From positions 1-4,205 of the IMG/VR virus record IMGVR_UViG_2667527898_000012: DNA of 4,205 nt, one strand, 5' to 3'. The position numbers and the translations under genes are program-made. The notes beneath the pieces were generated by a model that saw only the letters and a program-made list of their open reading frames with translations, searched no databases and was not told where the DNA came from. Shown piece by piece: positions 1-4,205 of this stretch. Source of the stretch: a virus (lineage: Duplodnaviria > Heunggongvirae > Uroviricota > Caudoviricetes). Every line of letters starts with the position of its first letter. Position 1 is the stretch's first letter.

Positions 1-2712
1 GGCAATATAAAGGCGTCCGTCCTGCATCTTCTGCAGCTTCACCGCCCACATGCTGTTCAGGTCATTACGGGTGTCCGTCTGCACACGCTGGATTTGCTGT
101 ATGGTGGCGCTCTGGTCCTCCAGCGTTTTACTGACCGTCTGTGTGATTTCATTGCGGGTTTCGGTGATGGTGGTCTGCATTTCCGCCATCTCGTCCTTCA
201 GCTGACTGTTGTCAATCTCTGCCCACAGCGCCTCTGCCAGATGCGTTTTTCCTATCTTTTCCCGGAAAAGTTCCAGATAGCCCGCAGCATCATTGCTCGC
301 CCGTCCACTGGCTTCCACAAAAGCAGATTTACCCACCAGGTTGACGCTGCGCACATAAAACCAGAAATCCTTTCCGGGCTTAATGTGCGGACCGGAGACA
401 CTCCACTGACTGCCGGTCCCCAGATAACGGGCAGAGGTTTCCACCTGTGCGGCGTCTGCAATTTTTGCCTCCGAAAACCAGAACTCAAACTGCACCGTCG
501 GGTCATAAATGGTCAGTTTCGGGACTGCCGTTATCTGAAAATACCCCGGCGTCAGTTCAACACCGGCAGGCGCTGCCGGTGCGTTAATCCGGAACGTGGT
601 GGTGGCGGGTTCGCCCTGCTGGCCATAGCTGTTAATCGCCCTGACCGTCAGGGTGTATTCCCCGAGAGGCAGGCCACTGAAACGGTGCTCCGTATCGGCA
701 GTGATGGCGGTGGTCAGCAGGCGGCTGTTCTCACCGCTTCCACTGGTCAGGCGCAGACTGAAGCGCACGCCCTTCACCACCCTCGGCGTGTCCCATTTCG
801 CCAGCGCCAGATACTGGCTGTCAGCTGCGCTCACCTCCACCGTCAGGTGCTGCACTGCCGGTGGGATAACGCTGTTCAGGGTGCCTGACTGCGGCTCAAA
901 GCGGGCTCCGTTATCCACAATGGCTTCTTTTTCCGGTACGTGCTGCACTGCCGTGATGGCAAAGGTGCCGTCCGTGTTTTCCCGGATGGAGACACAGCGG
1001 AACAGGCGACGGCGCAGTGACGGCAGGGAGAGTCCCCACACCCCGTATGTCTCCACACCATCAGGCAGGGTACTGACCTGTATCCGGTCCGGCGCGGGGT
1101 GTGCGGTGATGTCCACACTCACCGGCTTACCGCTGCCGTTAATCAGGTTCACCGTCGATGTACCTGTCCCCGGAAGTGTCACTTCACGGTCCAGCGTCAG
1201 GGTGCGGGTGGCAGCATCAATGGACAGGACACGTCCGCCGGTCAGGGTTCCGGCATAGTCGTTATCACAGATTTCAATGATGTCACCGGGTGTGTGCCGC
1301 AGCCCCTGTGACCCGAGTGTGAAATCCACCGTCTGCGTTTCCAGCAGTTCTGTCTTTATCACCCACAGCCCGGCACGGTGGGCCTGACCGCGACTGGTGC
1401 AGCCGAACGCATCCATCTTCAGCAGGTTGCGTCCGTAGCGCAGTATGGCTTCCGGGTCTTCCACCAGTTCCGTGGAGGTCTGCCAGCCGTTCTGCGGGTC
1501 GGTGTAATTCACCTCCACCGCCGTGTGCCGGTCCTTCAGGGCACTGAAGCTGTAGCGGAACCCCACGCCGTTATCATCCACCACCACATCGCTGTTCGTG
1601 TACGGCCACACCACATCCGACTGGCGGTCCTGAACGAACGTCAGCGTCTGGCCGTTCCATACCGGCATACAGCGCATCGCCGAGCAGAAATCACTGAGAA
1701 CGTCCCACGCCTTACGCTGTTGTGCCAGGTACGCATTAAAGGTCATCCGCGGCTCTGTGCCCCCGAAACCATCCGGGACCGTCTGGTCGCAGTACTGCCC
1801 GATGGCATACAGCGCCCACTTGTCCACATCCGCCGCCCCCAGACGTTTTCCCATGCCGTAGCGCGGGTGAGTCAGCATGTCCCACAGACACCAGGCCGGA
1901 TTGTTACTGTATGCCGGTTTCAGACTGCCGTCCCAGATACCACTGTACGTGCGTTTTTCCGGGTCATAGTTTGACGGCACCTGGATGATGCGACCGCGGA
2001 TATGGTAGTTCACCGTCATCTGCTGGCCGCCGAACTGCTCCGCATCCACCTGCAGCCCCACAATGGCCGTGTTCGGGTAGCACTGTTTCACATCGATAAT
2101 TTCGGTGTATGACGACCAGAGCGTCTTATTCTGCAGCTGGTCCGTGGTGCTGTCCGCCGTCTCCCTGACCATCCGGATGTTAAAAGGACGGGGAGGCAGA
2201 TTATCCAGAATCACCGACGCCAGAAACTGCGAGGTGGTCTTGCCGTTAATGGTGACATCCTTTTCCGTCATCCATTTACCACCACGCTCAAGCTGAATCA
2301 GCAGGCGGACAGACGTCGGGTTACGGTCACCCTTTGACGTGGTCTGCACCAGTGACTGCACCCCGAAGGTCACCCGCAGGCGGTCAATGTTCGCGGACGT
2401 AATGGTGCGCGTCACCGGTTTTGCCTTCGTCACTTCCACGCCCAGTACAGTTTCAGCTCCGGAGGACTCAAAGCCTTCCGGTGGTGTCTGCTCCTGCTCC
2501 CCGGCGCGCCAGACCGCCGTCACACCGTGTATCACGGGATTACCGTCCGTGTCCGTCAGCGGGGTTTTGTTCACCAGGATACTCTGCAGTCCCTTCACCG
2601 GGCCTTCTGTCGGTCCCTCACCAACCGCATCAGTCACGCTCATCATCTGCGTGGATTTGAGATTATCCTTCGCCTCACGAGGCGTGTGTGCTTTCCCTCC
2701 ACTTTTTCCCAT
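1..2712 (-). CDS. J: Host specificity protein J / central tail fibre (tip attachment protein), N-terminal 904 codons; 3' end lies beyond the window start
   Basis: Hand translation of the reverse complement from ATG at 2712-2710 gives MGKSGGKAHTPREAKDNLKSTQMMSVTDAVGEGPTEGPVKGLQSILVNKTPLTDTDGN... and runs to position 1 with no stop (checked in consecutive 60-nt blocks; frame = codons ending at multiples of 3). The N-terminus and many internal blocks (e.g. NKTLWSSYTEIIDVKQCYPNTA, WCLWDMLTHPRYGMGKRLGAADVDKWALY, RCVSIRENTDGTFAITAVQHVPEKEAIVDNGA, TPGYFQITA...YDPTVQFEFWFSE) match what I recall of phage lambda J. SD-like GGGAAGG sits 4 nt upstream of the ATG. Absent from the ORF track only because no stop occurs in-window. 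Confidence 0.95.
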   Translation of the reverse strand, partial: MGKSGGKAHTPREAKDNLKSTQMMSVTDAVGEGPTEGPVKGLQSILVNKTPLTDTDGNPVIHGVTAVWRAGEQEQTPPEGFESSGAETVLGVEVTKAKPVTRTITSANIDRLRVTFGVQSLVQTTSKGDRNPTSVRLLIQLERGGKWMTEKDVTINGKTTSQFLASVILDNLPPRPFNIRMVRETADSTTDQLQNKTLWSSYTEIIDVKQCYPNTAIVGLQVDAEQFGGQQMTVNYHIRGRIIQVPSNYDPEKRTYSGIWDGSLKPAYSNNPAWCLWDMLTHPRYGMGKRLGAADVDKWALYAIGQYCDQTVPDGFGGTEPRMTFNAYLAQQRKAWDVLSDFCSAMRCMPVWNGQTLTFVQDRQSDVVWPYTNSDVVVDDNGVGFRYSFSALKDRHTAVEVNYTDPQNGWQTSTELVEDPEAILRYGRNLLKMDAFGCTSRGQAHRAGLWVIKTELLETQTVDFTLGSQGLRHTPGDIIEICDNDYAGTLTGGRVLSIDAATRTLTLDREVTLPGTGTSTVNLINGSGKPVSVDITAHPAPDRIQVSTLPDGVETYGVWGLSLPSLRRRLFRCVSIRENTDGTFAITAVQHVPEKEAIVDNGARFEPQSGTLNSVIPPAVQHLTVEVSAADSQYLALAKWDTPRVVKGVRFSLRLTSGSGENSRLLTTAITADTEHRFSGLPLGEYTLTVRAINSYGQQGEPATTTFRINAPAAPAGVELTPGYFQITAVPKLTIYDPTVQFEFWFSEAKIADAAQVETSARYLGTGSQWSVSGPHIKPGKDFWFYVRSVNLVGKSAFVEASGRASNDAAGYLELFREKIGKTHLAEALWAEIDNSQLKDEMAEMQTTITETRNEITQTVSKTLEDQSATIQQIQRVQTDTRNDLNSMWAVKLQKMQDGRLYIA

Positions 2713-2716
2713 CCAC

Positions 2717-2723
2717 CCTTCCC
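2717..2723 (-). promoter_or_regulatory. Shine-Dalgarno-like element GGGAAGG for J
   Basis: Minus-strand sequence CAGGGGAAGGGTGG precedes the J ATG; the purine-rich core ends 4 nt before the start codon (short but plausible spacing). Confidence 0.4.
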
Positions 2724-2815
2724 CTGAAAAAATTATCCGCCACTTGCCATTCCGTACAGAAGTCGGATATCCTTCGCCCGAAAAGCATGAAACACATTTC
2801 TGCCATGCTAAACAG

Positions 2816-2850
2816 AAACCCCGGTATCAGCAGATACCGGGGTTTTCTTT
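2816..2850. terminator. Perfect 13-bp hairpin AAACCCCGGTATC-AGCA-GATACCGGGGTTT flanked by A-tract and U-tract; candidate bidirectional intrinsic terminator
   Basis: Arms at 2816-2828 and 2833-2845 are exact reverse complements around a 4-nt loop. Downstream is TTTTCTTTC on the plus strand and TTTCTGTTT on the minus strand. Located about 100 nt upstream of the J start codon. Confidence 0.5.
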
Positions 2851-2917
2851 CATGCCAACCGATAATCCTGTTGGTTAAAACCGGTAATGGCATAAAAATT
2901 CTGAATATCTTCACATT

Positions 2918-2945
2918 TTCACACACTGACTGTGGCGCTTATAAT
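2918..2945 (+). promoter_or_regulatory. Candidate sigma70 promoter: -35 TTCACA (2918-2923), 16-bp spacer, -10 TATAAT (2940-2945); A/T-rich stretch upstream (2889-2910)
   Basis: Read directly: -35 matches consensus at 5 of 6 positions, -10 is a perfect TATAAT, spacing is 16 bp. It faces away from J and towards I, i.e. antisense to the tail operon. Predicted transcription start near 2951-2953. Confidence 0.5.
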
Positions 2946-2951
2946 TTCGCT

Positions 2952-3050
2952 GCGTTAGTGTTTTTTTGCCCGAGTAACAAAAACAACTCCTTAACATTAA
3001 TCTTCATTTGTCTGTCCCCGCAGCTCCGCGATCACTGCGGGATTTTTTTA
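2952..3050 (+). ncRNA. Putative prophage-encoded small RNA (about 100 nt) between promoter and intrinsic terminator; possible Hfq-type sRNA or anti-sRNA
   Basis: Promoter at 2918-2945 and terminator at 3017-3058 bracket about 100 nt with no ATG and no ribosome-binding site. A GTG at 2958 opens a frame but lacks an SD and the frame runs on through the terminator. The segment includes a U7 run (2961-2967), a CA-rich stretch AACAAAAACAAC (2976-2987, four consecutive A-R-N triplets), and a 3' GC hairpin plus U-tract. Coordinates of the 5' and 3' ends are estimates. Confidence 0.45.
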
Positions 3051-3058
3051 TTCTTTTT
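3017..3058 (+). terminator. Rho-independent terminator on the plus strand: stem CCCGCAG (3017-3023) / CTGCGGG (3035-3041), 11-nt loop, then ATTTTTTTATTCTTTTT
   Basis: Perfect 7-bp GC-rich inverted repeat immediately followed by a long T-tract on the plus strand only; on the minus strand the stem is preceded by A's and not followed by U's. The U-tract overlaps the stop codon of I (3057-3059). Confidence 0.6.
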
Positions 3059-3737
3059 ACCCCTGCCGCCCGATAACCACGACCTTTCCGCACCCGCCTT
3101 CATCACGGGTACTGATGTCCTGGGATATACGGCGGGAGCCAACCAGCATTTCCCCGTAAGGCACCGGCATCGGGTTACCCTGGGCAATCATGTTGTCCAG
3201 TGACGAAAAATACGTGTTCTGTCTGCCGTTATCCGTTGCGCGGTAATCCGGTGTTTTTGCCTTCGGGGCCAGCATCTGGGCCACACCACCCAGAATCATG
3301 CTGGCCCCCAGTGAAAACAGCATCGTGGTGGCAGAAAAACCGCCGGCACTCAGGGCTGTACCCCATAACGCCATCGAGGCACCGGCAGTGAGGAAAGAGC
3401 CCACGATGGCTGCCGCCCCCAGCACAATCTGAAGTCCGCCCTTTCCGGCCCCGGCCAGTCGCGGCACAATATGGATAACCGTTCCCTCACCCAGTGGTTC
3501 GTGAAGGCGGGCATACACCGCCTCCGGTGCCGTATCCTCACCGGCAATGCGTATCTGGTACCAGCCTTCGTTCATCTGACGGCGAAAGCCCGGCACCTGC
3601 AGCGACAGGGCGCGGATGGCTTCCGCCGCCGTGTTCACATACAGGCTGAAGCGGCGGCCAAATCGTTGTAAATCCCCGTGAAGGCAGATGCGTGCCAGTG
3701 GCGGTGACGCCAGACAGAATGCGTTCGTCGTTGCCAT
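3057..3737 (-). CDS. I: Tail assembly protein I (tail tip assembly), 226 aa
   Basis: ORF-track protein MATTNAFCLASPPLARICLHGDLQRFGRRF...GASMILGGVAQMLAPKAKTPDYRATDNGRQNTYFSSLDNMIAQGN...VVVIGRQG resembles lambda gpI as I recall it, including the Gly/Ala-rich hydrophobic central segment. Stop TAA at 3059-3057 confirmed by hand. Lies between K and J in the lambda gene order. Start at 3737 is inside the K reading frame. Confidence 0.93.
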   Translation of the reverse strand: MATTNAFCLASPPLARICLHGDLQRFGRRFSLYVNTAAEAIRALSLQVPGFRRQMNEGWYQIRIAGEDTAPEAVYARLHEPLGEGTVIHIVPRLAGAGKGGLQIVLGAAAIVGSFLTAGASMALWGTALSAGGFSATTMLFSLGASMILGGVAQMLAPKAKTPDYRATDNGRQNTYFSSLDNMIAQGNPMPVPYGEMLVGSRRISQDISTRDEGGCGKVVVIGRQG

Positions 3738-4205
3738 TTTTCGGAATACCTCTCCCGTTTACTCAGTTGTTCAGGCAGATGGTGAAGCAGTTCACCGTTG
3801 CCGCAGTAAATGGCGGCATGATTAGCCACCGATGCGCCGAAGCAGCACAGCAGGATATCGCCCGGCAGTGCAGAGGACAGGGGCACCCGGTAAAAGCCCG
3901 TTTCCTCCATATTGTCCAGGTAAAGGTTCTGACCGTTGCACCACCAGTCATCCTCACGGTGAAAATCCGGCATATCAATGCCTGCCAGATGGTATGCATC
4001 CCGGAACAGCGTGTAACAGTCCGTCACCCCGTGCGCAAAGCGCCGTCCCGTCAGGTGCGGAACGCAGCGGAATTTGTGAATGTCACCCCGGCTGACCAGC
4101 CACCAGGGCAGTGCGCTTTTTATCTGCAGCCGCCGGTCGGCCTCGCTCAGCCAGGGCAGTCCACCGGGATGACTGTGGACCAGTGCCACAATCTCCCCCT
4201 GCATC
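3635..4205 (-). CDS. K: Tail assembly protein K (MPN/JAMM metalloprotease-like plus NlpC/P60 cysteine peptidase-like domains); 5' end truncated by the window edge
   Basis: In-window protein contains the JAMM signature H-x-H-x7-S-x2-D (HSHPGGLPWLSEAD) followed by an NlpC/P60-like Cys...His...His arrangement (GVTDCYTLF ... ANHAAIY ... LLHHLP), the two-domain layout known for lambda gpK. The frame is open to the last base of the window, so the true start is upstream of 4205. It overlaps the I start by 103 nt in a different frame, which matches the lambda K/I overlap as I recall it. Confidence 0.9.
   Translation of the reverse strand, partial: MQGEIVALVHSHPGGLPWLSEADRRLQIKSALPWWLVSRGDIHKFRCVPHLTGRRFAHGVTDCYTLFRDAYHLAGIDMPDFHREDDWWCNGQNLYLDNMEETGFYRVPLSSALPGDILLCCFGASVANHAAIYCGNGELLHHLPEQLSKRERYSEKWQRRTHSVWRHRHWHASAFTGIYNDLAAASACM

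Follow-up and report, generated by a model that had tools for sequence, protein, structure and literature searches.

The region at positions 1-340 of the analysed DNA, a stretch of 4,205 nucleotides referred to here as the window, most probably (we put the probability at roughly 80%) covers the J protein of a lambda-like prophage from the end of its second FNIII domain (FNIII-2), through the entire alpha-helical shaft (AHS), to the strands with which its central straight fibre (CSF) begins. The shaft domain is already known and its structure solved; the window has a lengthened allele of it, of a minority type, in an ordinary lambdoid prophage tail gene. The shaft is a structural domain and, by analogy with phage lambda, a trigger domain, and not the start of a receptor-specificity module.

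Gene content and domain assignment

All genes of the window are encoded on the minus strand, and follow each other in the order K - I - J, on the same strand, as in lambda. Gene K, encoding a C40-family peptidase, is represented by its 3' part (3638..4204), the N-terminus of the product falling outside the window; it was recognized as an open reading frame and from the annotation of relatives, as was the tail assembly gene I (3057..3737), which bears the same annotation in them. The 5' part of J, the tip attachment and host specificity gene, occupies positions 2712..1, as one open frame of 2712 bases, or 904 codons, starting from the ATG at 2712; the C-terminal part of the gene, about 270 codons, lies past position 1 and hence outside the window. 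Genes I and J are separated by a low-GC spacer of 344 bp (3056-2713). The possibility that this spacer is the gene for the anti-sRNA AgvB was ruled out, AgvB and AsxR being located at the PR' moron site (PMC4104026), and Rfam models gave no hit anywhere in the window at E <= 1.

Residues 1-834 of the J fragment match the lambda gpJ chains present in PDB, including 8iyk_J, with E = 0 (phmmer). Pfam analysis of the fragment identified FNIII-A_GpJ and Phage-tail_3, both above cut-offs, as well as Ig_J at residues 609-712 and Ig_J_second at 714-816, corresponding to the two FNIII/Ig-like domains which follow the hub. Residues 817-870 are not covered by any Pfam model in the scan of the fragment; in the full-length relative from E. 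coli 2013C-3033 (L006), the Phage_Tail_Tip model is found at 871-998.

Positions 1-340 encode J residues 791-904; the peptide quoted for this region in the initial annotation begins at residue 805. Three parts can be distinguished, all on the minus strand. Residues 791-806 (295..340) are the last strands of the second FNIII/Ig-like domain, as indicated by the Ig_J_second match, by predicted strands and by the motif GKSAFVEA, common to lambda and the window. Residues 807-887 (52..294) are the equivalent of the lambda AHS, 81 residues long: both ends align to the lambda domain, and predicted helices and composition agree with the assignment. The remaining 17 residues, 888-904 (1..51; MWAVKLQKMQDGRLYIA), align to lambda 862-878, are predicted to form strands, and correspond to the beginning of the beta-prism CSF.

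Predicted helicity of the shaft

The distal part of J had been described in the initial annotation as a Gln/Thr/Glu-rich, helix-prone segment, different in character from the beta-rich upstream domains, and composition bears this out: Q+T+E account for 34.6% of residues in J 807-887 vs 20.0% in J 1-790, and P+G for 2.5% vs 14.3%. The J fragment goes longest without Pro at residues 780-904, and without either Pro or Gly at 822-898. An AlphaFold2 monomer model of J 700-904, based on 27 aligned sequences, features helices at 809-832 and 836-889, separated by a short break at I833-D834-N835, with pLDDT values of 87-94 across residues 840-879; beta structure, corresponding to FNIII-2, is predicted upstream of the helices, and strands are found again after residue 892. 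The FNIII part of the model is poor (mean pLDDT 62), and what we took from the model is therefore restricted to the secondary structure of its helical portion. A Foldseek search with the same model retrieved only lambda gpJ chains, with a low TM-score (0.32), and generic FNIII domains, nothing beyond what sequence had already matched. According to the model, J 807-887 is thus an alpha-helical segment.

The heptad-like spacing of hydrophobic residues, also proposed initially, is only partly recovered. Hydrophobic periodicity in J 807-887 has its maximum at 3.6 residues (z = 3.7; reached by 0.9% of shuffles). The value at exactly 3.5 is reached by 18% of shuffles in J 807-887 and by about 2% in J 831-887, being significant only in the latter, and the best a/d register in J 807-887 shifts along the segment. 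A peak at 3.6 combined with a shifting register points to an amphipathic helix, which would fit a helix bundle with stutters; the strict heptad periodicity of a coiled coil in the narrow sense is weak.

Comparison with the lambda gpJ shaft

The structure of lambda gpJ has been described in both closed (PDB 8XCK) and open (8XCI) form (Ge et al. 2024, PMC11101478), and the domain limits used here (AHS = 809-861) are taken from that work. In lambda, the AHS is a three-helix bundle located between FNIII-2 and the beta-prism fibre, holding the three FNIII-2 units from below. Binding of LamB makes it flip by about 180 degrees; the part formed by 809-840 becomes shorter, and that formed by 841-861 turns into beta strands. 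This refolding frees the FNIII domains and opens the tail tip (PMC11101478).

The window shaft shares with the lambda domain its position between FNIII-2 and the beta-prism fibre, a helical nature, with two helical segments in both, and the flanking motifs, DAxGYLxxF..KI...HL at the N-terminal and N.MWAVK...DG..Y.A at the C-terminal side. It differs in length (81 residues vs 53 in lambda), in composition, being Thr/Gln/Ile-rich where lambda is Glu/Lys/Asp-rich, and in sequence, with an overall identity of 21.0%. Moreover, about 28 central residues have no counterpart in lambda J: HMMER leaves J 835-862 (127..210, minus strand), a placement which is ambiguous in its exact limits, unaligned between lambda residues 836 and 837, and aligns J 863-904 to lambda 837-878. 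No similarity to lambda can be detected in the central part of the shaft, which is taken as homologous on account of its position and its flanks.

Identity to lambda J is not uniform along the fragment: from 73.4% over residues 1-806 it drops to the value reported above for the shaft, and is 52.9% over residues 888-904. The stretch is thus by far the most diverged part of the fragment, as had been suggested, but the onset of the divergence has to be moved from residue 790 to about 815-818, because no 81-residue interval upstream of the shaft falls below 53% identity.

Shaft alleles and receptor-binding domains

In the initial annotation, the diverged helical stretch was taken as the start of a swapped host-range module, in which all of J beyond about residue 790 is exchanged as one unit, changing receptor specificity. 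The sharp fall of identity to lambda would fit such an exchange, as would the recombination junctions which do lie within the stretch, and receptor specificity of J proteins is indeed carried at their C-terminal end (PMC11101478). What follows the shaft, however, makes this explanation very unlikely. In L006, the nearest proxy for the window's J, which is available at full length (1176 residues; WP_106894452.1), identity to lambda measured per 30 residues is 0.57, 0.50, 0.93 and 0.63 between residues 901 and 1020, and does not sink to 0.13-0.30 before about residue 1021, where the receptor-binding domain (RBD) starts. This domain lies at least 130 residues beyond the shaft and outside the window, where the initial annotation had also placed the receptor-binding end.

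Furthermore, shafts and RBDs are not inherited together. L006 and the locus of E. coli EC2 (L003) carry the same shaft allele as the window, yet differ from each other in fibre alleles, RBDs and downstream genes: J is directly followed by a side-fibre gene in L006, and by lom and then a fibre gene in L003. Among 60 complete related loci taken from IMG/VR, three shaft alleles and five RBD clusters occur in various combinations; all three alleles are found with one and the same RBD type, and the allele of the window is found with two RBD types. The divergent block, in addition, begins upstream of the shaft, within the FNIII domains. The flagged segment does not behave as a receptor-binding (host-range) module, given that similarity returns in the fibre and that alleles reassort. 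Free reassortment, along with the similarity regained after the shaft, makes shaft divergence uninformative on the receptor used.

Mosaicism and recombination junctions

Lambdoid tail genes are known to be mosaic, and the window is a mosaic when set against any of the records found. Among 5426 complete E. coli genomes, the best matches to the whole window reach 96-97% identity, with a patchy distribution of mismatches, and no locus compared is exactly identical over the last 1200 bases. A search of genome contigs with an exact 81-base sequence from the window end, and exact look-ups of the two possible gene I products, gave no match either. Junctions were located by mismatch maps, covering the last 1000 bases, and by 60-base identity profiles. 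E. coli 2013C-3033 (L006) is identical to the window over positions 1-664 and diverges beyond, with a junction at about 665. E. coli EC2 (L003) shows 2 mismatches over 95-843 and 40 over 6-94, which places a junction between 95 and 162, at the protein motif QRVQ / KDTNDDLAALYMLK. Phage 783R2 (L005) has dense mismatches over 63-819 and 4 over 1-62, with a junction at about 44-63. A step in synonymous divergence is also seen at the shaft/fibre border, and mismatch maps and synonymous divergence together define a recombination junction zone at positions 44..162. Crossovers may also fall inside the shaft, as in the protein fragments P0031 and P0068, which are hybrid shafts.

A further recombination junction is found at about 800-820. 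At the population level, best-match identity was determined for each E. coli record over three segments of 340 bases: the commonest identity band is 95-99% in the hub (1201-1540; 1813 of 1888 records), 80-90% in the FNIII region (341-680; 1412 of 1695 records) and 60-80% in the flagged stretch (1-340; 2025 of 2335 records). Departure from the common E. coli allele thus sets in at about 800-820, within the FNIII domains, and reaches its maximum in the shaft. The mosaic junction initially suspected is accordingly real, in that junctions do fall within the segment, but the divergent block starts well before it in the coding direction, at 800-820 and not at 340.

Length classes and constraint on the shaft

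Shaft alleles are discrete in E. coli prophages, with several alleles and several length classes. Classes were identified by measuring the distance between the anchors GKSAF and MWAVK/LYMLK among protein fragments obtained from a database search with J 725-904. Anchor-to-anchor lengths of 71 (lambda type), 99 (the window and common EHEC-prophage types) and 172 residues were found, the last class consisting of two clusters with more than 1500 member sequences; about 53, 81 and 154 helical residues, respectively, lie between the anchors. The 71 and 99 classes are precisely four heptads apart, while the 172 class is not reached in steps of seven: a rule by which shaft length varies in multiples of seven was thus discarded, fitting the first two classes and failing for the third. 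A recent duplication as the source of the 28 additional residues was likewise rejected, as searches for tandem and dispersed repeats in positions 1-400 of the window yielded trivial matches only.

The common long-shaft J alleles of EHEC/Stx-associated lambdoid prophages, such as those of phage vB_EcoS-783R2 and of the PPompW prophages, have the same 99-residue anchor length and the same gene context as the window, and share with it the motifs NEITQTV and QSA.IQQIQ.VQ.DT; amino-acid identity to the window in the shaft is 63-83%. The window allele itself is a minority type, at least 95% identity over positions 1-340 being found in 102 records among the 5426 complete E. coli genomes. In the papers searched we found no description of length classes in the shaft of E. 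coli prophage J proteins, an absence which is no proof of novelty.

Coexistence of several length classes, together with the lack of a Pfam model for the centre of the shaft and its position as the most diverged part of the fragment, could indicate a weakly constrained spacer, which diverges and varies in length as a neutral side effect of recombination. The dN/dS values between shaft alleles, 0.16-0.31, are however similar to those of the adjacent FNIII domain, and show that purifying selection acts on the shaft, which is therefore no free linker. Moreover, the different shaft alleles retain a composition suited to helices, with Pro and Gly absent, and the domain has a defined mechanical role in lambda (PMC11101478). 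We therefore regard neutral variation of a spacer as rather improbable, and retain the reading of the shaft as a constrained structural domain.

A different role for the additional length is suggested by F2 pyocin, whose J homologue PyoF10 (PDB 25vf) has an extended, three-stranded coiled-coil AHS which carries side fibres, three side-fibre trimers being bound to it (PMC13455828). PyoF10 and the window protein are both J-family proteins in which a hub and two FNIII domains are followed by a helical shaft longer than that of lambda, three-stranded in PyoF10 and presumably so in the window protein. By analogy, the extra residues of the window shaft could be a docking site for side tail fibres: a gene annotated as "prophage tail fiber N-terminal domain" directly follows J in the closest full-length relatives, and the predicted helix break at I833-D834-N835 could serve as a kink. 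PyoF10, however, has features of its own, namely a far longer shaft, an insertion domain, a Gly kink and side-fibre binding, whereas the window shaft is extended by a mere 28 residues and lacks an insertion domain. In Ur-lambda, side fibres attach via a collar on the tail tip complex and not to the shaft (PMC12617516). It is from annotation alone that the downstream genes are assigned to the lambda stf type, and prophages with this long shaft vary in the genes that follow J, L003 with its intervening lom being an example. We consider a docking role for the window shaft unsupported and highly improbable.

A model for shaft function and exchange

If the window shaft works as its lambda homologue does, three copies would associate into a parallel helix bundle directly beneath the FNIII domains, an arrangement for which F2 pyocin offers a second precedent. 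The bundle would clamp the FNIII domains shut, and would bear the beta-prism fibre and the RBD. Binding of the distal domain to its receptor would produce a twist running up the fibre; the shaft would then flip, its C-terminal part would refold into beta strands, the FNIII domains would be released and the tail tip would open. Flipping and partial conversion to beta structure on receptor binding are known only for lambda, and are extended to the window shaft by analogy. As to physical length, we infer that the 28 extra helical residues would add about 4 nm to the lambda shaft, if the helix is continuous. Shaft alleles are exchanged by homologous recombination, for which conserved motifs on the flanks and inside the shaft (GYL..F, NEITQTV, MWAVK) serve as sites; these exchanges are independent of the RBD.

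Significance

For annotation purposes, the flagged stretch can now be assigned to the structurally defined alpha-helical shaft of gpJ. Divergence in this domain should not be read as a change in receptor specificity, because the RBD is located further downstream and assorts independently.

The existence of length classes is no surprise, in view of the known mosaicism of lambdoid tail genes and of the extended shaft of F-type pyocins. That these classes, of 53, 81 and about 154 residues, act as a cassette which recombines at conserved motifs, independently of the RBD, is an only mildly novel lead, and a small one for phage engineering. More tentatively, the shaft may act as a "length and trigger" cassette that is exchanged on its own, and could set both the reach of the tip, for instance through O-antigen or capsule, and the energy barrier of the helix-to-sheet transition that opens the tail. 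Were this doubtful possibility true, the shaft would be a second determinant of infectivity, independent of the receptor.

Mosaic composition of the window

None of the collections searched contains an exact match to the whole window (1-4205). The genome of E. coli 2013C-3033 is 100% identical over positions 1-664, and outside this interval other strains are nearer; the window is therefore a mosaic combination unrecorded so far. In its closest whole-window relatives, a full ompC porin gene lies between the tail genes M and L (positions 3759-4922 of the related locus L001 and 1759-2922 of L003, from E. coli EC2), and is a moron within the tail operon.

Variation of the J gene

Database fragments matching J residues 725-904 include alpha-helical shafts far longer than that of the window, which measures 99 residues between the anchor motifs GKSAF and MWAVK/LYMLK. 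The corresponding distance is 172 residues in P0047 and P0078, and the alignment suggests that the shafts of P0063 and P0098 are longer still; all four fragments include helical sequence of a repetitive kind. Smaller departures are found in P0081, which carries a single additional 'IQQ', and in P0001, where the end of the shaft and the start of the beta-prism fibre are apparently duplicated internally: these two changes are either real products of slippage or recombination, or assembly artefacts.

In phage PhiR12_5 (L004 5404-8933), for which a laboratory host is on record, the J gene is annotated at just 974 residues, terminating inside the fibre at GGNPPH, and is followed by a separate 175-residue 'tail fiber' ORF, so that J is here either split or frameshifted. 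On the plus strand of the window, antisense to J and spanning the region that encodes J residues 791-904, a 264-codon ORF with a TTG start (94-888) was taken as spurious, sitting within the well-supported J coding frame.

The spacer between I and J

The tail genes I and J are separated by 344 bp of low GC content (window 2713-3056, GC about 0.42), in contrast to only 60 bp in lambda, and this spacer contains no annotated gene in the relatives. Antisense to the tail genes, its plus strand features a near-consensus candidate promoter (TTCACA-16-TATAAT, 2918-2945) and a candidate terminator, formed by a hairpin and a T-run (3025-3041), which together would delimit a putative transcript, roughly 100 nt long, that includes a CA-rich stretch. 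A whole-window scan (E <= 1) returned no Rfam match, and the fold z-score is just -1.3.

Conservation of the spacer is 98% among PPompW-type and Stx prophages. Both phage PhiR12_5 and E. coli 2013C-3033 have unrelated sequence in place of its middle part (window 2765-2885), with identities of 0.08-0.43 per 60 bases, and the I-J spacer is thus itself a mosaic insertion site.
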